Origin: Oscillospiraceae bacterium
GTDB taxonomy: Bacteria > Bacillota > Clostridia > Oscillospirales > Oscillospiraceae
Length of the DNA stretch: 64,000 nt
Assembly (NCBI GenBank): GCA_015067495.1
Contig: SVMI01000005.1
Coordinates: 41,599 to 105,598, forward strand
Direction of reading: 5' to 3'
Positions 4,546 through 44,621 of the stretch are shown piece after piece. The notes below the pieces were generated by a model, which was not told where the DNA came from, searched no databases, and was given only the letters and a program-made list of their open reading frames with translations. The translations under genes and the position numbers were made by a program. Position 1 is the stretch's first letter. Every line of letters begins with the position of its first letter.

Positions 4546-6795
4546 ATGGCACGTAAGAAGAAAGAATCTGAACAGAATAAGCCAAAGGTCAACACCGATC
4601 ACGTGGTGGGACTGGTGGGTTCCACCACCGAGCAGGCGATCACCGAAACGCTGGAGATCAACTACATGCCCTACGCCATGTCGGTCATCGTTTCCCGGGC
4701 GATCCCGGAGATCGACGGCTTCAAGCCCTCTCACCGCAAGCTGCTTTACACCATGTACAAGATGGGGCTTCTGCGTAAGGATCGGGTGAAGTCTGCCAAC
4801 ATTGTCGGTCAGACCATGCAGCTCAACCCCCATGGTGATGCCGCCATCTACGAAACGATGGTGCGTCTTGCGCGGGGCAACGAGACTCTGCTGCACCCCT
4901 TCGTGGACTCCAAGGGTAACTTCGGCAAGGTCTACTCCCGGGATATGGCATACGCCGCCTCCCGTTACACCGAGGCGAAGCTGGATGCCATTTGCGAGGA
5001 GATCTTTAAGGACATCGACAGCGACACCGTTGACATGGTCGATAACTACGACGGCTCGCTGAAAGAGCCGAGCCTGCTGCCCACCACCTTCCCCAATGTG
5101 CTGGTCTCTGCCAATCAGGGCATCGCGGTCGGCATGGCGAGCAATATCTGCTCGTTCAACCTGCGTGAGGTCTGCGAGACTGCCATCGCCTTGATGCAGA
5201 ACCCGGAGCATGACATTCTGGAAACCCTGCCCGGCCCGGACTTTTCCACCGGTGCGGAGCTTCTGTTTGACGAAGCGACCACCCGTGAGATCTATTCCAC
5301 CGGTCGCGGCAGCTTCAAGCTCCGTGCAAAATGGCACTATGTCAAGGACGGAAACCTGATCGAGATCACGCAGATCCCTTATTCTACCGCCGCGGAAGTC
5401 ATTATGGACAAGGTGGCGGATCTGATCAAGGTCGGCAAGATCAAGGAGATCGCCGATATGCGTGACGAGTCCGACCTCGGCGGTTTGAAGCTGACCATCG
5501 ACCTGAAGCGCGGTGTCGAGCCGGAAAAGCTGATGCAAAAGCTCTTCCGCATGACTCCTCTGCAGGACAGCTTCGCCTGCAACTTCAACATCCTCATCGC
5601 CGGCATGCCCCGTGTCATGGGTATCGCAGAGATCCTTGAGGAGTGGACAGCATGGCGTACCGAGTGCGTCAAGCGCAGACTTTACTTCCAGATCGGCAAG
5701 AAGGAAGAACGGCTGCACCTGCTGAAGGGTTTGGAGCGCATCCTGCTGGACATCGACAAGGCAATCAAGATCATCCGTGAGACAGAGCTGGATGCGGAGG
5801 TCATTCCCAATTTGATGATCGGCTTCGGCATCGACGAGATTCAGGCGAACTACGTTGCGGAGATCAAGCTTCGCAACATCAATAAGGAATATATCCTCAA
5901 GCAGACCAAGGCAATCGCGGAGCTGGAAAAGGAAATTGCCGACCTGCGCAGTACTCTGAAGAGCCACGCAAAGCTGCAGAAGCTGATCATCGACGAGCTG
6001 AAGCAGGTGGCGGACAAGTACGGTCAGCCCCGCAAGACCGAGATCATCTACGAGTCTGCACAGATAGAGGAAGAAGACGAGGTCGAGCAGGTACCCGACT
6101 ATCCTGTCACACTCTTTATCTCCAAAGAGGGTTACCTCAAGAAGATCACGCCTCAGTCGCTGCGCATGAGCGGTGAACAGAAGTTCAAGGAAGGCGACAG
6201 CCTGCAATTCTCTGTGGAAACGACCAACCGTGCAGAGCTGCTGGTCTTTACAGACCGCTTCCAGTGCTATAAGACCCGTCTTGCTGATTTTGAGGACGGC
6301 AAGGCTTCCCAGCTGGGCGATTATCTGCCTCAGAAGCTGGGCATGGAGCAGGGCGAAAATGTGGTACAGGTGGTGCTGCCCGGCGATTACAAGGGCTTTG
6401 TGCTGTTCTTCTTTGAAAACGGCAAGGTCGCCAAGGTACCCCTGAGTGCCTATGAGACCAAGACAAACCGCAAGAAGCTGACGGGTGCTTACGCCGACAA
6501 GAGTCCTGTCAAGACCATCTGCGCCCTTTATGAGGATGCCCAGATGGCAGTCTATACCACCGACAACCGGGCGGTCATCTTCTCGACGGCACAGCTGCTG
6601 CCCAAGACCAGCCGCAACACCATCGGCGTTTCTGTGGTCAGCGTTAAGAAGAAGGCGGCGGTGTCTCATGCCGTGCCGGTGAGTGAGAGCGGCATCGTGA
6701 ACCAGAGCCGATACCGCACCAGAACGCTGCCTTCGGCAGGTTCGCCGCTGAAGCCGGAGGATGCGCCGGAAAAACAGATCAGCTTTGAAGTTTAA
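4546..6795 (+). CDS. parC: Type IIA topoisomerase A subunit (ParC-like / GyrA family)
   Basis: DGFKPSHR, PHGD, catalytic ASRYTE; shortened CTD with no QRRGGKG GyrA-box. Confidence 0.85.
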   Translation: MARKKKESEQNKPKVNTDHVVGLVGSTTEQAITETLEINYMPYAMSVIVSRAIPEIDGFKPSHRKLLYTMYKMGLLRKDRVKSANIVGQTMQLNPHGDAAIYETMVRLARGNETLLHPFVDSKGNFGKVYSRDMAYAASRYTEAKLDAICEEIFKDIDSDTVDMVDNYDGSLKEPSLLPTTFPNVLVSANQGIAVGMASNICSFNLREVCETAIALMQNPEHDILETLPGPDFSTGAELLFDEATTREIYSTGRGSFKLRAKWHYVKDGNLIEITQIPYSTAAEVIMDKVADLIKVGKIKEIADMRDESDLGGLKLTIDLKRGVEPEKLMQKLFRMTPLQDSFACNFNILIAGMPRVMGIAEILEEWTAWRTECVKRRLYFQIGKKEERLHLLKGLERILLDIDKAIKIIRETELDAEVIPNLMIGFGIDEIQANYVAEIKLRNINKEYILKQTKAIAELEKEIADLRSTLKSHAKLQKLIIDELKQVADKYGQPRKTEIIYESAQIEEEDEVEQVPDYPVTLFISKEGYLKKITPQSLRMSGEQKFKEGDSLQFSVETTNRAELLVFTDRFQCYKTRLADFEDGKASQLGDYLPQKLGMEQGENVVQVVLPGDYKGFVLFFFENGKVAKVPLSAYETKTNRKKLTGAYADKSPVKTICALYEDAQMAVYTTDNRAVIFSTAQLLPKTSRNTIGVSVVSVKKKAAVSHAVPVSESGIVNQSRYRTRTLPSAGSPLKPEDAPEKQISFEV

Positions 6796-6815: not shown

Positions 6816-7898
6816 ATGAAAAAATCGGTCATTTTGATCATCGTTTTGTGTCTGCTGCTTAGTGGCTGCAGTAATTGGCTGAACGGAAACTATTCCTCTG
6901 TGGTTCCCCACACAGAGCCGAATGAGCAGATCAACACTCCGTCGGCAAGCATTGCCAACTACTTCCAGACGAAATTGGAATTGATCTCAATGGTAAAGAA
7001 CGGCACAGAAAGTGCGGTGCTTACGATCCTCTATCCTTCAGACAAGGATGCGGAAGCAGACATGATCAAGGCGATCGACGAGGTTTGCCGGACGGATCCC
7101 TATGCCGTTTATGCAGTGCAGGGTATTCGCTATGAGCTGGGCACAAGCAGTGGACAGAGTGCCATCCACGTCCAGATAACCTATCGGCAGAACAGAGTGG
7201 ATGTGAAGACGATCCATGCGGTCAAAGACGTGGAGGAGGCAAAGCTGCTGATCGCAGAGCAGCTGGATGCCTGTTCTTCCGGCGTGGTGTTCTACTGTGA
7301 GAGCTGGGGACAGCCGGATTACGCGCAGATCGTTGCCGATTATGCGCTGAAAAATCCCCATCAGGTCATTGAGGAGCCGGAGGTCACAGTGAACAGCTAC
7401 CCCGAAAGGGGTATGAAGCAGATCGTGGAGCTGAAGTTTACCTACCAGACCAGCCGGGATTCCCTGCGGGTGATGCAATCCCACGTGGCGGTGGTGTTCA
7501 ATTCGGCAGAGCAATCTGTTGATCCTGCCGCATCGGAGATGGAGCGGCATGAGCAGCTGTACAATTTTCTGATGAACCGCTATTCCTCCTATGAGATCAG
7601 CACTTCCATAACACCGGCATACAGTCTGTTACGCCACGGAGTGGGTGATGAGCGGGCATTTGCAACGGTTTACGCTGCCATGTGTGGAAGAGTAGGTCTG
7701 AATTGCGAGGTCGTGACCGGCACACGTGACGGCAAGCTGTGGACGTGGAACGTGATAGAGATGGACGGTATCTATTATCATCTCGACGTGCTGCGCAGCA
7801 GGGAAGCAGGTCAGTTCCATACCTATACGGGTGAGGAGATGACCGGCTATGTATGGGATTACTCTCTGTATCCCTTCGCCAGAGAAAAAATATCATAA
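6816..7898 (+). CDS. Lipoprotein with C-terminal transglutaminase-like domain (degenerate catalytic triad)
   Basis: Lipobox LSGC; C-terminal GLNCEVVTG...WNVIEMDGIYYHLD typical of transglutaminase-like domains. Confidence 0.7.
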   Translation: MKKSVILIIVLCLLLSGCSNWLNGNYSSVVPHTEPNEQINTPSASIANYFQTKLELISMVKNGTESAVLTILYPSDKDAEADMIKAIDEVCRTDPYAVYAVQGIRYELGTSSGQSAIHVQITYRQNRVDVKTIHAVKDVEEAKLLIAEQLDACSSGVVFYCESWGQPDYAQIVADYALKNPHQVIEEPEVTVNSYPERGMKQIVELKFTYQTSRDSLRVMQSHVAVVFNSAEQSVDPAASEMERHEQLYNFLMNRYSSYEISTSITPAYSLLRHGVGDERAFATVYAAMCGRVGLNCEVVTGTRDGKLWTWNVIEMDGIYYHLDVLRSREAGQFHTYTGEEMTGYVWDYSLYPFAREKIS

Positions 7899-7914
7899 AA
7901 TAGGCAAAAAGGTA

Positions 7915-7942
7915 TTGACATTTGCAGGATTTCTGCTATAAT
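7915..7942 (+). promoter_or_regulatory. Sigma-A promoter of tRNA-Gly
   Basis: TTGACA-16 nt-TATAAT with extended TG. Confidence 0.75.
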
Positions 7943-7954
7943 ACCTTTTGTTCC

Positions 7955-8030
7955 GCGGGTGTAGCTCATCCGGTAGAGCGCCACCTTGCCAAGGTGGAGG
8001 TAGCGAGTTCGAGCCTCGTCACCCGCTCCA
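7955..8030 (+). tRNA. tRNA-Gly(GCC)
   Basis: 76-nt cloverleaf GCGGGTG...CACCCGC-TCCA, anticodon GCC, GTTCGAG T-loop, encoded CCA. Confidence 0.97.
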
Positions 8031-8074
8031 AATAGAAAAAGCAGATGCATTAGCATCTGCTTTTTCTATTTGGA
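8027..8074 (+). terminator. Terminator hairpin after tRNA-Gly (22-bp perfect inverted repeat)
   Basis: TCCAAATAGAAAAAGCAGATGC-ATTA-GCATCTGCTTTTTCTATTTGGA. Confidence 0.8.
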
Positions 8075-8698
8075 AAATGGCGGTAGAGGCTCGAAGATCT
8101 CAAATGCAACAGTCCGGGGGACTGTTGCGCGCGACGGCTGGACGGAGCGCAACCATAGTTTTTGCCGAAGGCGAAAATGCAAACGAGCCTCGTCACCCGC
8201 TCCAAAAAGAAAAGCAGATGCGTTAGCATCTGCTTTTTCTTTTTGTTTGAATGACGTGAGAACGGGTATGGTCGTAGAATTTGTATCGCTGTCCATGGTA
8301 TCGAGAATTTGACTGAGCATGATGGCGCGCTTGGGGTCAATTCGCTTCCATGGACCGCTATCAATGCGCATAAAGCGGTTGTCCCGCTGCTGGTAGACCT
8401 TCTGCGTGTTGTCGGAATAGCGCAGGGTAATAAAAAAATCGCTTCCCTGTATTTGCGCCGGGTCTTCTGCAGGTGTTCCGTAAGGGGAAATGCTGCGAAG
8501 ATAATAGAGGATTTTCTGCATTTTTTCCGGCTCAAAAAAGCTCCCCTCGGAAACGATCCGATCTTTCTGATAACGGACATCAATTTGCGTCACGACGCGG
8601 TAAGCCTCTGTTTCAGAGGGGCGCTGCAAATGAGCACAACCAGCGGTGATCAGGGCAAGGATCATGGAAAGAAAAATAACTGCAATTTTTCGCTTCAT
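8066..8698 (-). CDS. Putative lipoprotein (hypothetical); reading frame runs into the tRNA-Gly repeat
   Basis: MKRKIAVIFLSMILALITAGC lipobox with GGAGG RBS at the 8698 start; no stop until 8066. Confidence 0.7.
   Translation of the reverse strand: MKRKIAVIFLSMILALITAGCAHLQRPSETEAYRVVTQIDVRYQKDRIVSEGSFFEPEKMQKILYYLRSISPYGTPAEDPAQIQGSDFFITLRYSDNTQKVYQQRDNRFMRIDSGPWKRIDPKRAIMLSQILDTMDSDTNSTTIPVLTSFKQKEKADANASAFLFGAGDEARLHFRLRQKLWLRSVQPSRATVPRTVAFEIFEPLPPFSK
8080..8204 (+). ncRNA. Four-stem structured element, copy 1 (behind tRNA-Gly; possibly related to the Clostridiales-1 RNA motif)
   Basis: Closing stem GAGGCTCG/CGAGCCTC encloses hairpins GCAACAGTCC/GGACTGTTGC, GCGC..GCGC and a TTTT-GCC-GAA-GGC-GAAAA arm; same architecture at 29133-29260. 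Confidence 0.6.
8184..8240 (+). repeat. Direct repeat of the tRNA-Gly 3' end plus terminator (other copy 8010-8067)
   Basis: CGAGCCTCGTCACCCGCTCCAAA.AGAAAA.GCAGATGC.TTAGCATCTGCTTTTTCT, 57-58 bp with about 3 differences. Confidence 0.9.
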
Positions 8699-20559: not shown

Positions 20560-21095
20560 CGGAAATCGGTAGTGTCTACGGCAACGCCCTTTATGAGCTG
20601 GCGGTTTCCGAGGAGCTTTCTGCCGAGATCCTCGCTCAGCTGACGGTTCTGCAGGAGAGCTTTTTGCAGGAGCCGGCTTTTTTGAAGCTGCTGAGTGTGC
20701 GCAATCTATCCAAGGCGGAGCAATGCAAGATCATCTCCGACAGCTTTGACGGCAAGATTCATCCATACGTGGTGAATTTTCTGAAGATCCTGACGGAAAA
20801 GGGCTACATCCGCCGCTTTGCGGATTGCGTTGCGGCTTATCGCGCCTGCTACAATGAGGATTACAACATCCTGCCTGTCACGGCGGTTACGGCTGTGGCA
20901 CTCAGTGCTGAGCAGACCGCGCGTTTGAAAGAAAAACTGGAATCCATCACGGGAAAGTCAGTGGAGCTGACCAACCGGGTGGATCCCGACTGTCTGGGCG
21001 GTGTGCGTCTGGATCTGGAGGGCAAGTGCTTGGACGATACCGTCGCCCACCGACTGGAATCGGTCAGGCAGCTGCTCAAAAACACTGTACTCTGA
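20556..21095 (+). CDS. atpH: ATP synthase F1 subunit delta
   Basis: [18 protein letters not shown]. Confidence 0.93.
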
Positions 21096-27984: not shown

Positions 27985-29010
27985 TTATAGACGTGCTTTT
28001 AATCTTACGATATCCCGACGGACGGCATCTGCCGTTTCGCCTTCGGTGAAGTTCCACTCTGTTTTGTACATTTCCAGTTCTTCCTCCCGGGCGGCGATCG
28101 CTCCGGCGTAATCCCCCTGAATTTCCAAAATTTGGGCGATGGAGATGATCGGATCTACGTAACGGGGCGGCTTACCCACAGCAAGAGCCTTACGATGCCA
28201 TTGGATCGACTCGTCGTACCGTCCGTCCCGGGCAAGATAGTCCGCGATCGTATCCGGCAAGTTCCAACGCTGGGGATACTGCTGACAAAGTGCTTCCCAA
28301 ATGCGGTAGGCTTGCTCCTTATTGCCCCGATGCCATTCCAAGATACCCCGATACAGAGGAACGCGGAAGGAAGTGTCGATTTTGTCGAAAACAGTCAGCC
28401 ATTTTTTCGCTTCGTCAAAGCGGTAATCGTCGATGAGCTGATCGATGAGCCACATAACGCCGTGCCAATTATCCGGGTTATTTTCCATAAATTCCTCATA
28501 ATAGCGAATGAGCGCAGCATGGTTGGTTTCGCACCAATCCCAACAGCGACCTTTCATCGCCTGAACCAGCAGAGAATGGGCTTCCACCAGATTGGGGTCA
28601 CGACGAAGGGCTTCTATAGCATATTCAGCAGCCTTGCTTCGATGTTCCTGACTGAGCTTTATTTCCATGTCCGCCAAAAGCTCATGGGGGCGACCGTTTT
28701 CCGACTCTCGGCGTGCCTTCTCCAGCAGGAAAAGCCGCTCATTTTCCACCGCGGCAGGGTTCAAGTACCGCTCGTCCCACAGCATATTCTGAATGCGTTC
28801 CATTCGCGTTTCGTCATCCAGAGCAAACAGGGCATCGATGGTCACACCGAAATAAGCCGAAAGCTCCGGCAGCAACGAAATATCCGGCACGGATGTGCCG
28901 CACTCCCATTTACTGATCGCCTGAGCGGTCATGCCGAAATGCTCAGCCATAGCCTCTTGCGTTACGGATTTTTTCAGACGCAGGGCTTTGATTTGATTTC
29001 CAATATTCAT
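27985..29010 (-). CDS. XRE-family HTH regulator with TPR-like C-terminal domain
   Basis: LRLKKSVTQEAMAEHFGMTAQAISKWECG HTH followed by helical TPR-like repeats. Confidence 0.8.
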   Translation of the reverse strand: MNIGNQIKALRLKKSVTQEAMAEHFGMTAQAISKWECGTSVPDISLLPELSAYFGVTIDALFALDDETRMERIQNMLWDERYLNPAAVENERLFLLEKARRESENGRPHELLADMEIKLSQEHRSKAAEYAIEALRRDPNLVEAHSLLVQAMKGRCWDWCETNHAALIRYYEEFMENNPDNWHGVMWLIDQLIDDYRFDEAKKWLTVFDKIDTSFRVPLYRGILEWHRGNKEQAYRIWEALCQQYPQRWNLPDTIADYLARDGRYDESIQWHRKALAVGKPPRYVDPIISIAQILEIQGDYAGAIAAREEELEMYKTEWNFTEGETADAVRRDIVRLKARL

Positions 29011-29132
29011 AGCAAACTCCTTGTGTTTGTATCAGCGCTGTACCCTCATTTTAGCATATCTTTCTCAAATAGCAATGGCGGCGCAGGCGATGGGATGCAA
29101 CTGACAGTTGTGATCCGCTGGAGCGTGTTGCT

Positions 29133-29260
29133 GTGACCCGCTGGAGATTCGTTTGCATCGCCGTCTGGGAATGGACGGCGATTATGGTAGCCACCGGTTT
29201 TTGAACTGGTGGCAGCAGCAGTCCCCCGGACTGCTGCATCTAAATCTTCGAATCTCCCGC
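29133..29260 (-). ncRNA. Four-stem structured element, copy 2 (behind tRNA-Lys)
   Basis: Minus strand GGAGATTCG-AAGAT...GCAGCAGTCCGGGGGACTGCTGC...ACCATA...ATGCAAA-CGAATCTCCAGCGGGTCAC; the last 19 nt (29133-29151) repeat the tRNA-Lys 3' end (29312-29330). Confidence 0.6.
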
Positions 29261-29270
29261 TTGCTCCCTT

Positions 29271-29310
29271 ATGAAAGAAACACCACCCATTAGGGTGGTG
29301 TTTCTTTCAT
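29271..29310 (-). terminator. Terminator hairpin after tRNA-Lys
   Basis: ATGAAAGAAACACCACC..GGTGGTGTTTCTTTCAT inverted repeat. Confidence 0.8.
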
Positions 29311-29385
29311 GGTGACCCGCTGGAGATTCGAACTCCAGACCCATTGCTTAAAAGGCAATTGCTCTGCCAGCTGAGCTAGCGGGTC
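29310..29385 (-). tRNA. tRNA-Lys(TTT)
   Basis: GACCCGC...GCGGGTC-ACCA cloverleaf, anticodon loop CTTTTAA. Confidence 0.96.
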
Positions 29386-40948: not shown

Positions 40949-41851
40949 ATGGAATTCCCGTGGCAGGAAATTGCATCAGCAGCTAATTTGTTGGCATCCC
41001 TTTCGGTTTTTTCAGGCATTATAGTCTATAAACTAGAAAAATCTGATACAGCAATTTACAATGTGCAACGAGCAATTATTAAATTCAGAGCCAATGTCCA
41101 GGCTCTTGATCGGGATTTTAGAACAGAATTATTCAGTGAAATGGCAGCATCTACTATATACGCTGATTCATTATCATCTATATATCCCAAGATTCTCTCG
41201 GAACTTAATAATTCCATCAAAGAATACCAATCATTATCTCGTAAGAAGCAAGATGCTTTCTTGAAAACAGCTTCAGTAAAACTTATTAAATTAATCGGTG
41301 CAATTCCAACATCTGTTTCTACCCCATTAGTATTACGAACAGAGGATAGGATTGAAGAGCTAATTAAAGAGTCTTTGCCATTCACTCCTCATTTTGCTGG
41401 ATTAGAGCGAGTCGCAACAACAGTTTACCATTTGTATTTCCAATTATTAAATAAGTATCGGGCAATTTGCTTGGATCTTAAAAACTGGGAAGTCGTATTC
41501 AAAAACATTATTTGCAACGAAGTTGTACTTGATAACGTGGAAGAACTCAAGTATACACTATGTATTCATTTAGCGGCATTGCAAAATACAATTGCTGCCG
41601 AACACGATCAAGCAGATATTGATATAGTTGTTAAAATTGTTAACCTAATCTGTAATGCATATCTCTCGAAAAGCACACATGAATTAAAGAAGCTTAGAAA
41701 AAGCAAAGTTTCACTATTGCCCTTTGAATCATCTGATACATATGTGGCACAATTTACTGAGGCACAAAAAGCATTTAGAGAAGTGCTTTCTCGAGATGAG
41801 GAAAATGCTTATTCAAATTATGTAAAAGAATTTGAAATGAACAACCAATAA
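40949..41851 (+). CDS. Hypothetical cargo protein (N-terminal hydrophobic helix, alpha-helical body)
   Basis: 300-aa AT-rich ORF with AAGGAGG RBS; no motif recognised. Confidence 0.75.
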   Translation: MEFPWQEIASAANLLASLSVFSGIIVYKLEKSDTAIYNVQRAIIKFRANVQALDRDFRTELFSEMAASTIYADSLSSIYPKILSELNNSIKEYQSLSRKKQDAFLKTASVKLIKLIGAIPTSVSTPLVLRTEDRIEELIKESLPFTPHFAGLERVATTVYHLYFQLLNKYRAICLDLKNWEVVFKNIICNEVVLDNVEELKYTLCIHLAALQNTIAAEHDQADIDIVVKIVNLICNAYLSKSTHELKKLRKSKVSLLPFESSDTYVAQFTEAQKAFREVLSRDEENAYSNYVKEFEMNNQ

Positions 41852-43142: not shown

Positions 43143-44621
43143 TTACAAAAATGGTAACGATGCTTGCATTGCATTTGCAGAGATCCTTTTGCTGTTGCTG
43201 TCCAAGTGAGTATATATGTTTGATGTTGTGCCAATATCACTATGCCCAAGCCATTCTTGGATATCCTTTAGTCCGATGCCACAAGCATAAAGCAAACTGG
43301 CGCAGCTATGGCGCAGATCGTGGAAACGTATCTTTTTTAGGCTATTCCTTTCCAGCAACAAAGCGAAGTGCTGTGTTACGAAATTGGGCTTCAGCAGATG
43401 TCCCATTGGATCAACACAGACATAATCCAGGTATTCCTTGCAGTAATCTCTCCCAAAGGATTGCTGGTTTTGTATTTGCGTTTCTTTAACCTTACAAAGC
43501 AGCTTTTCGAACGGAGGAACAAGTGGGAGTGTCCGATAGCTGGAGGCCGTTTTTGTTCCATCCTTCTGAATTATCTTCGTGTGCCCGTTGAGTGTTGTTT
43601 GTACCACGGTGTGATTGATGCAGATTGTTTTCCTCTCAAAGTCGATGGCACTCCATTTTAGTCCGATAACCTCACTGCGACGAAGCCCATAGAACGCCGC
43701 TGCTAAGATTGGCAATTCCAAAGGGTCATCCTTGGCCATAAGAAATAGCTGTTGCAATTCATGTTGGTTATAGATGTTTGTATGAAATCTGTCTTTACTG
43801 GGTTTCTCAATGCGATCAGCAGGATTGGACTTTATCAGTCCCAACCGAAACGCATATTGTAAACAGCTGTGAATATTAGCATGGCGTCTAATAACCGTTG
43901 CCGGTGCCAATCCCTCAGACAGAAGATACTGATAATACTCCTGAATATATTTCGGGCGATGCTCCAACTGTTTCAATGTAAGCTGTTTAGGGTCAAAGAA
44001 CGGGATGATGCTTTTCTCTACATTTGAGACATAAGAAGCATATGTAGTTACGGCGATCTTTGATTGCACAACATCCAGCCAGTCAAATAGAAAGTCTGTA
44101 AATAGTATTGTTTCATAAGTACAGGGATTCACTTTAATTGCAGGATTCTCCTTGAGCCACTTTAGCTCTATTGCATACTCCAAGGCAGATGTAAATATGG
44201 CGTGATAAAGTTTTAGTTGTTTGATCCCAGCGCCATTCTCCTCCTGTTCATAGCAATAAAACCGTTCAAGTTCATTAGGGGTCAATTCGGTAAGCTTTAT
44301 CCTATTTGTCAGAAAGTACGGCTGAATATTTGCGCTTAAGGAATAAGCATATCCAGCATACAGTGCGGGTGGAATAGCTGATGCTCTATCATGTATCCAC
44401 TTGTCAATGAAATCAGCAAACAGCATATCAGCGTTTTCAAGCTCGTTTCTGGGGTTAAAATGCTGACGGGTATCCAGCAACATTTGTTCTGCCTTTGCCT
44501 TGTTGCCCTCTACTGTGAGTCTTGTGCTGATAGATTTACTCTTGCGTTTCCCGTCTTTTCCTTTCCAATTCAGTACCATTTGGTAGTATCCGTTTTGCTC
44601 CCTTAGATGCCCAGCAACCAT
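43143..44621 (-). CDS. int: Site-specific tyrosine integrase
   Basis: N-terminal arm-binding segment, two core-binding-like domains, catalytic YGLRRSE, FHDLRHS, LGHSD, NIYTH. Confidence 0.93.
   Translation of the reverse strand: MVAGHLREQNGYYQMVLNWKGKDGKRKSKSISTRLTVEGNKAKAEQMLLDTRQHFNPRNELENADMLFADFIDKWIHDRASAIPPALYAGYAYSLSANIQPYFLTNRIKLTELTPNELERFYCYEQEENGAGIKQLKLYHAIFTSALEYAIELKWLKENPAIKVNPCTYETILFTDFLFDWLDVVQSKIAVTTYASYVSNVEKSIIPFFDPKQLTLKQLEHRPKYIQEYYQYLLSEGLAPATVIRRHANIHSCLQYAFRLGLIKSNPADRIEKPSKDRFHTNIYNQHELQQLFLMAKDDPLELPILAAAFYGLRRSEVIGLKWSAIDFERKTICINHTVVQTTLNGHTKIIQKDGTKTASSYRTLPLVPPFEKLLCKVKETQIQNQQSFGRDYCKEYLDYVCVDPMGHLLKPNFVTQHFALLLERNSLKKIRFHDLRHSCASLLYACGIGLKDIQEWLGHSDIGTTSNIYTHLDSNSKRISANAMQASLPFL

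Follow-up and report, generated by a model that had tools for sequence, protein, structure and literature searches.

A real, abundant and genus-specific family of gene-less hairpin elements occupies the T-loop position of tRNA and transfer-messenger RNA (tmRNA) genes in the bacterial genus Faecousia. It is described here from a copy that follows tRNA-Gly(GCC) in a 64,000-nucleotide stretch of an Oscillospiraceae bacterium genome (assembly GCA_015067495.1, contig SVMI01000005.1, forward-strand positions 41,599 to 105,598), the whole of which is called the window. Each element has a left arm (B'), antisense to the 3' end of the adjacent tRNA, a structured core and a right arm (B), a sense copy of the same tRNA 3' end, and the two arms pair as the closing stem (P1). 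We favour, at a probability of roughly one half, a DNA-level mobile or recombining element that acts as a folded attachment-like site for an enzyme working in trans.

The order proposed for the Gly locus by an initial annotation (tRNA, terminator, antisense copy of the tRNA 3' end, core, sense copy, second terminator) is present there in full (Table 1). The same layout is found, as that annotation also held, behind tRNA-Lys on the minus strand, from 29385 down to ~29130, with Lys-derived arms and the common core landmarks; the P3 and P4 hairpins of the Lys copy differ from those of the Gly copy. The Gly element folds as a four-way junction with an RNA minimum free energy of -51.7 kcal/mol (z = -5.3); none among 200 shuffled sequences is as stable. 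Its two flanking terminators, T1 and T2, align with a score of 27 (maximum 36; null mean ~-6.6, 99th percentile 12), and T2 is a diverged duplicate of T1. At the tRNA-Gly(GCC) locus of a close relative, the two terminators are unrelated to each other.

Placement and arms were tabulated for 105 aligned copies from many genomes, located by a pattern search and by a covariance model built from 8 copies. A tRNA gene lies upstream on the same strand in 78 of the 105, the gap being nearly always 41-59 nt with an intrinsic terminator between, and the element is always oriented as the adjacent tRNA is. Where no tRNA precedes a copy, it mostly lies behind tmRNA, at the end of a contig or within an array. 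For 62 copies the adjacent tRNA is clear, and these represent 22 anticodon types in 13 amino-acid classes (Cys, Lys, Gly, Arg, Thr, Ser, Val, Pro, Leu, Gln, Asp, Ala and Glu). In the source genome of the window (G000; 1.98 Mb, 97% complete), only the last of clustered tRNAs bears a copy; within a transcription unit, it is the final tRNA or tmRNA gene that has an element on its 3' side.

In the right arm, the adjacent tRNA is repeated in direct orientation from T55 or C56, mostly over 15-22 nt and often through CCA, which many arms lack. The left arm begins at T54 and reads as the reverse complement of the tRNA 3' end. Both arms track the adjacent tRNA throughout the table, so that the closing stem is specific to each tRNA, as initially proposed. 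The limits of the constant part are seen most directly in one genome, in which the copies behind tmRNA and tRNA-Val(CAC) share ~80 identical nt in the core and lose identity, on both sides, inside the T-loop pentamer TCGAA. Across tRNAs the constant part reads TCGAA(CC)-core-AAA(T)CGA, and the variable arms correspond to the tRNA from position 59 onward. With TCGAA(CC) and AAA(T)CGA as its ends, the constant part places both junctions in TTCGA, a conserved palindromic motif of the T-loop (TCGA is palindromic, as is TTCGAA), and their precision across all tRNAs is 1-2 nt. The proposal of a non-autonomous, gene-less element tied to tRNA T-loops, with TTCGA at both junctions, is supported. The repeating unit is made of the tRNA 3' end (from T55 or C56), the gene's terminator, a short spacer, a ~10-nt inverted copy (positions 54-63) and the ~90-nt three-hairpin core, and a second copy of the tRNA 3' end follows each unit.

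The inverted copy is short. In many copies the match of the left arm is exact over positions 54-63 and is then abruptly lost, even where a 21-nt right arm is still 100% identical to the tRNA; because this limit stands beside an intact right arm, the inverted copy was ~10 nt long from the start in those copies, and a fold-back copy of the whole tRNA 3' end was rejected as a general rule. The antisense copy of the initial annotation holds, then, for about 10 nt, the remainder being degenerate or never copied, and the fold-back or template switch suggested as its origin could account for that much and not for more. In a few copies (L004, L045, L025), the palindrome formed by tRNA 3' end, terminator and left arm runs through CCA/TGG with a small internal indel. 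Right arms show 17 changes; the left arm agrees with the tRNA in 12 of these, with the changed right arm in 4 and with neither in 1, and selection for closing-stem pairing was not seen. A tRNA-like gene on the opposite strand was also rejected, its acceptor halves being unpaired and ARAGORN and Rfam negative.

All helices of the element covary: 96.3% of cells are paired, 528 cells are changed on both sides, and none of 500 shuffles and no slid control approaches this. Mismatches of any kind are nearly absent from these helices, which contain 50 G·U and 33 A·C among 3046 cells; as a control, 82 tRNAs of the same genomes have 89 G·U and 2 A·C among the 984 cells of their acceptor and T stems. 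No promoter-like site was found inside the element, which sits between terminators. We read the pairing as kept at the DNA level, presumably as hairpins in single-stranded or extruded DNA or by templated palindrome correction, because G·U shows no RNA-type excess, a terminator lies upstream, the element has no internal promoter and right-arm mutations go uncompensated. Read-through transcripts surely exist to some degree; at the Gly locus, the tRNA promoter is the sole promoter-like site able to drive the element, and then by read-through only. The initial suggestion that an RNA pairs with, decoys or alters the processing of the pre-tRNA is weakened by the missing excess of G·U over A·C, the intervening terminator, the lack of an internal promoter and left arms that leave right-arm mutations uncompensated.

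The covariance model finds 15 copies in the source genome at E < 1e-10; such a scan had been proposed at the outset, and neither of the contrary outcomes then named (most copies away from tRNAs with a constant closing stem, or a lack of covariation) was seen. The element is present in 20 of 24 genomes of the same genus, with 1-24 copies each; two of the four that lack it are 94-97% complete. Of 16 genomes that belong to other families of the order, the model found it in none. A 25-nt stretch of the core, searched as an exact pattern over one genome per species, occurs in 54 contigs, nearly all from Faecousia sp. or Oscillospiraceae of animal guts. Because five contigs of the source genome (C2, C6, C14, C17 and C21) end 47-203 nt past a tRNA gene, the copy number in the assembly is an underestimate. 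This fits a repeat that breaks short-read assembly, the true copy number being higher and the counts in metagenome-assembled genomes too low. One contig join could be made through a close relative: two tandem copies at the end of C6 follow tRNA-Ser(GCT) of C21. No Rfam family covers the element (the window searched at gathering score; positions 7800-8400 at E <= 10, with the tRNA alone significant; and 16 further loci). Phage records searched with blastn and IMG/VR searched with the exact core pattern gave zero matches, and a viral vehicle is not indicated. A search of the literature on tRNA-linked repeats and related topics found no description of such a family in Clostridia.

Presence and absence between strains, which the initial annotation had asked about, are seen at tRNA-Gly(CCC). 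In the source genome this locus is a tRNA and its terminator, free of the element; in a relative whose flanks are ~94% identical, it holds B' and the core, ~119 nt, and a ~55-nt stretch with the tRNA 3' end and terminator is duplicated around them. The duplicated target is 21-81 nt long. Tandem units with truncated distal copies occur. The argument that identical T1 and T2 prove a fresh target duplication is weakened, the perfect cases (L058, L061) being tandem units with a truncated distal core. In the one cassette-like array seen, behind tRNA-Val(GAC) on contig C6, units alternate with small cargo segments, which carry two XRE-type helix-turn-helix (HTH) genes, two Cys-rich small open reading frames (ORFs) and a 626-aa ORF without a Pfam match. 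The Cys-rich ORFs (L001:3114-3330 and 6185-6401; 67 and 77 aa) are 94% identical, have no Pfam match and are each paired with an XRE-type HTH gene. Core similarity appears to track the genome and not the tRNA type: on a core tree that is poorly resolved and built from few columns, genome labels require 46 changes against 54 when shuffled, below every shuffle, and tRNA labels 47 against 49.9, almost random. Some cores look mosaic between their 5' and 3' halves.

Table 1. Features of the Gly and Lys loci (window positions) and serine recombinase genes next to units (positions on the sequences named)
Feature	Position	Strand	Remarks
Promoter of tRNA-Gly	7915..7942	+	TTGACA, 16-nt spacer, TG-TATAAT; consensus match 12/12
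tRNA-Gly(GCC)	7955..8030	+	8010-8030 (C56-A76) is the first copy of direct repeat B
Terminator hairpin T1	8031..8072	+	GAAAAAGCAGATGC ATTA GCATCTGCTTTTTC, with A and T tracts; diverged duplicate of T2
Left arm B', antisense	8078..8095	+	TGGCGGTAGAGGCTCGAA; degenerate overall, the degenerate stretch being 8078-8085
Exact inverted part of B'	8086-8095	+	GAGGCTCGAA; inverse of tRNA positions 54-63
Closing stem P1, 5' strand	8086-8093	+
Conserved core	8096..8183	+	88 nt, three hairpins
J1/2	8096-8105	+
P2	8106-8128	+	GCAACAGTCC GGG GGACTGTTGC
P3	8129-8150	+
J3/4	8151-8158	+	AACCATAG
P4	8159-8177	+
J4/1	8178-8183	+	TGCAAA
Right arm B, sense	8184..8204	+	CGAGCCTCGTCACCCGCTCCA; 21-nt exact direct repeat of tRNA-Gly C56 to CCA (8010-8030)
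Closing stem P1, 3' strand	8184-8191	+
Second terminator T2	8205..8248	+	bidirectional
tRNA-Lys(UUU)	29310..29385	-	last gene of a Gln-Lys pair
Terminator after tRNA-Lys	29271-29309	-
Lys element copy	29141..29259	-	arms GGAGATTCGAA and CGAATCTCC...; 88.8 bits by covariance model
Displaced tRNA-Lys 3' end	29133-29152	-	19 nt exact, without CCA
Third, decayed tRNA-Lys 3' end copy	29110-29123	-	beyond the Lys element
Serine recombinase gene	G000 C16:21121-22650	-
Serine recombinase gene	G000 C3:44084-45433	-
Serine recombinase gene	L071:4253-5806
Serine recombinase gene	L023:1654-1902

The surroundings of the copies hold further features. The third tRNA-Lys 3' end suggests that the Lys site may have been used more than once; beyond the Lys element lies a gene (27985-29010, minus strand) for a 341-aa XRE-HTH protein with TPR repeats. 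Elsewhere in the window, at ~43197-43700, a genome-wide Phage_integrase search places the gene of a 493-aa tyrosine recombinase. The tRNA-Gly(GCC) locus of the close relative (L091) carries, at 770-1500, ~730 bp of DNA additional to that of the window between the element and the common downstream gene, within which are a small ORF and an array of hairpins joined by ATGAAG linkers; the first terminator of this locus bears no relation to the T1 of the window, yet its core is 99% identical. The Gut-1 RNA motif of Rfam (RF01706) lies just 3' of element copies at L002:1045-1119 (equal to G000 C6:145844-145918; 66.5 bits) and at L028:2923-2997 (59.9 bits), in runs of short hairpins with TGATAT- or ATGAAG-type linkers, a second kind of small structured repeat in the niches downstream of tRNAs. 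At three unrelated loci (G000 C16 ~20880-20920; C3 ~43850-43890; and L005 (C13), 3' of a Pro(CGG) copy), the right arm is followed by a conserved motif of ~35-40 nt, GTTTTTAGCCCG(Y)GGGAGAGTCC..., which could be another attachment site or a repeat.

Genes for large serine recombinases (Resolvase, Recombinase and Zn_ribbon_recom domains) end 7-100 nt 5' of a unit at four places (Table 1), and within that distance each is followed by a terminator, B', core and B. The genes on C16 and C3 are both of the full-length members of this clade in the source genome. Three of the four ORFs end inside a copy of the tRNA-Arg 3' end, which encodes their last codons (...CFGVP-stop and ...SVP-stop), and the junction of ORF and tRNA-Arg falls near position 64-67, outside the T-loop. 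The simplest reading would be that islands with serine recombinases use the same tRNA ends as targets; alternatively, the serine recombinase might be the missing mobilizing enzyme. Reverse-transcription models (a self-primed pre-tRNA, or tRNA-primed cDNA) were rejected as the current mechanism, as the source genome has no match to the reverse transcriptase domain RVT_1 and T1 is a direct, not an inverted, copy of the native terminator.

The empty and occupied states of the tRNA-Gly(CCC) site, taken with the tandem arrays and the gene cassettes, suggest that the element is DNA that moves or recombines, with its point of entry in the T-loop between TT and CGA. Entry or recombination at this point would leave the tRNA intact and displace the old 3' end downstream, as in integrative elements of the T-loop class. 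The two arms and the core may fold as a DNA hairpin structure that offers a duplex copy of the target, comparable to attC sites or the attP of CTX phage, and a candidate recombinase supplied in trans would act on the folded structure. Units might then multiply in place by unequal recombination between repeats, trap cargo genes and become homogenized within a genome. Several points weigh against this account. The unit has no ORF, and no recombinase or transposase linked to minimal units was found; none of the 5-6 tyrosine recombinase genes that the Phage_integrase search gives for the source genome adjoins a copy, and RVT_1 has no match in that 97%-complete genome. Chimeric tRNAs, which are expected if a carried 3' end jumps to a different tRNA, were not seen. 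The empty tRNA-Gly(CCC) site could be a secondary deletion between direct repeats and not the ancestral state, the clustering of cores by genome could reflect gene conversion instead of transposition, and a functional RNA would also account for the strong conservation of unpaired junction nucleotides. Nor does the account explain the match of the ~10-nt inverted arm to each new tRNA.

A more specific form of trans recombination, which we regard as possible though clearly less probable, is a tRNA-anchored, integron-like cassette system, in which circles, gene-less or now and then with a gene, would fold as single-stranded DNA, their inverted and direct copies of T-loop and T-stem pairing so as to mimic the tRNA gene duplex. 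A recombinase in trans would integrate them between TT and CGA in the T-loop of whichever tRNA or tmRNA is the target, from which the ~10-nt guide arm would take a new sequence with every jump. About as doubtful is a functional RNA of the kind encoded by the RtT repeats of Escherichia coli (Rfam RF00391), transcribed by read-through from the tRNA promoter, cut out by tRNA-processing enzymes through recognition of its tRNA-like 3' end (closing stem, acceptor strand and CCA) and having, as proposed for RtT, a role in tRNA metabolism or stress. The architecture matches RF00391, the orientation is always that of the tRNA, the junction nucleotides are conserved, the helices covary and the fold is very stable; a perfect promoter stands upstream of tRNA-Gly, and processing of rtT RNA from the tyrT transcript has been reported (10.1101/2024.07.17.603846). 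Such an RNA would, however, have to be made past an intrinsic terminator at nearly every copy, from helices in which G·U is not favoured over A·C as it is in the tRNA stems of the same genomes. Many right arms are without CCA, right-arm mutations are uncompensated in the left arm, and the RF00391 model gives no match, while truncated copies in tandem and presence or absence in close relatives are the usual marks of selfish DNA.

Two further readings compete with that of a mobile DNA element. The structure B'-core-B could have served as attachment arm in larger integrative elements, such as ones bearing a large serine recombinase, and the small units would be derivatives by internal deletion left at tRNA genes, on which those recombinases perhaps still act in trans. 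Integrases are normally specific for a single site, and one core family at 22 anticodon types (13 classes) and tmRNA departs from this. The recombinase genes 7-100 nt upstream of units (G000 C16, C3, L023 and L071), three of the four ending in a tRNA-Arg copy, and the cargo cassettes between units speak for such an origin, as do two precedents: islands with serine recombinases are known at the 3' end of ssrA (PMC3146451), and displaced tRNA fragments mark island ends generally, as catalogued in Islander (PMC4383910). Yet the recombinase ORFs meet tRNA-Arg near position 64-67 and not at the T-loop junction of the element, so that adjacency may mean a shared target only, and most copies have no recombinase within reach; we hold this origin to be rather unlikely. 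Least probable of all is a by-product of replication or repair that needs no enzyme of its own, with template switching at the palindromic terminator and T-loop (TTCGAA) and spread of the core by ectopic gene conversion. The perfect palindromes through CCA/TGG in L004, L045 and L025, the position of both junctions in a palindromic motif, the mosaic cores and the near lack of any helix mismatch, which fits templated palindrome correction, agree with it. Against it, more than 100 sites share a homologous ~90-nt core whose four-way junction is conserved, which requires a spreading mechanism; the junctions are precise to 1-2 nt across all tRNAs; and the sharp limit of the inverted copy at 54-63, where the 21-nt right arm is intact, looks like a defined reaction.

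The family supplies hundreds of natural variants from which the generation of the arms, the responsible enzyme and the choice between a DNA and an RNA process can be worked out. If the arm is a target-matched guide, it would represent a new way of programming site choice; if the integron-like system is real, RtT of E. coli and the Faecousia family would be products of one general, undescribed mechanism. On the practical side, the elements break short-read assemblies after tRNA genes and give false 'island end' signals to tools that rely on displaced tRNA fragments.

REP sequences, BIMEs and REPINs with RAYT transposases are gene-less, multicopy, extragenic hairpin DNA, presumed to be served by a single-copy enzyme acting from elsewhere. 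The Faecousia elements are likewise gene-less and multicopy, with inverted arms that fold back on each other, whereas the arms of REP sequences do not vary and have no tie to tRNA genes. Miniature inverted-repeat transposable elements do not fit, as the arms differ per tRNA beyond TCGAA and the target duplication is 21-81 nt and not short, and neither does a retroelement (retron, group II intron or SINE-like), for want of RVT_1 in the source genome. The likeness to the Clostridiales-1 RNA (RF01699), a multi-stem motif of gut Clostridia that the initial annotation had suggested, did not survive the Rfam search, which was negative at gathering score and at E <= 10; the element is not a member.

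The attC sites of integrons and the folded single-stranded attP of CTX phage are imperfect inverted repeats round a structured spacer of ~60-140 nt, in which structure is conserved over sequence. The Faecousia elements resemble them in their structure-conserved inverted repeats and in a short crossover core and inverse-core motif (here TCGAA and (T)CGA), and the single array behind tRNA-Val(GAC) may correspond to their cassettes between sites; they differ in having the T-loop of a tRNA as target and arms that vary with it, and any single-stranded intermediates are here putative. With integrative elements that use the T-loop, such as mycobacteriophage Ms6, whose tRNA-targeting integration has its crossover in the T-loop (PMC1762012), they have in common that the tRNA is regenerated by element sequence, that a displaced 3' fragment from the T-loop bounds the far end, as was found when looked for, that units accrete in tandem at one tRNA, and that relatives differ in presence and absence. 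Unlike these, the unit is only ~170-190 bp long, encodes no integrase, carries an extra inverted copy of the target and a duplicate of the local terminator, and belongs to one core family at many tRNAs.

The nearest counterpart is RtT (RF00391, rttR), the tyrT-tyrV repeats of E. coli; a repeat unit with a copy of the tRNA 3' end behind tyrT has been known since the 1970s. At the tyrT locus, an Rfam search gives four RtT copies at 133-138 bits. In the 178-bp unit, the tRNA-Tyr 3' end is directly repeated from a point within the T-loop (AATCCTTCCCCCACCACCA) and is also present as an antisense copy (GGGGAAGGAT); the RtT model pairs these two as its closing helix, with CCACCACCA for a 3' tail. The RtT consensus reads GgGaaGGAU...AUCCuuCcC, then ccaCCACCA, and its equivalent in the Gly copy is GAGGCTCG...CGAGCCTC, then GTCACCCGCTCCA. 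The rtT RNA is reported to be processed from the tyrT transcript, with its mode of action unknown (10.1101/2024.07.17.603846). In both systems, a closing helix of antisense and sense copies of the tRNA 3' end surrounds a structured core of ~90 nt and ends in an acceptor strand and CCA tail; both lie directly behind tRNA genes on the same strand, both form tandem copies, and the function and origin of both are unexplained. There is, however, no likeness in sequence or by covariance model, RF00391 being without a match on the window or at 16 loci. The Faecousia core forms a four-way junction, tRNA and element are separated by an intrinsic terminator, the helices show no RNA-type tolerance of G·U, and a single family in a genus of Clostridia reaches high copy number at 22 anticodon types (13 amino-acid classes) and tmRNA. 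The tRNA-specific closing stem, which the initial annotation had singled out as unexplained, has a precedent in RtT: it is an old, unexplained architecture and not a new one, in a family that by the Rfam model is not RtT. With most terminal tRNA genes and the tmRNA of a whole genus occupied, and the arms rewritten for each target, the RtT architecture is no longer the curiosity of one operon.

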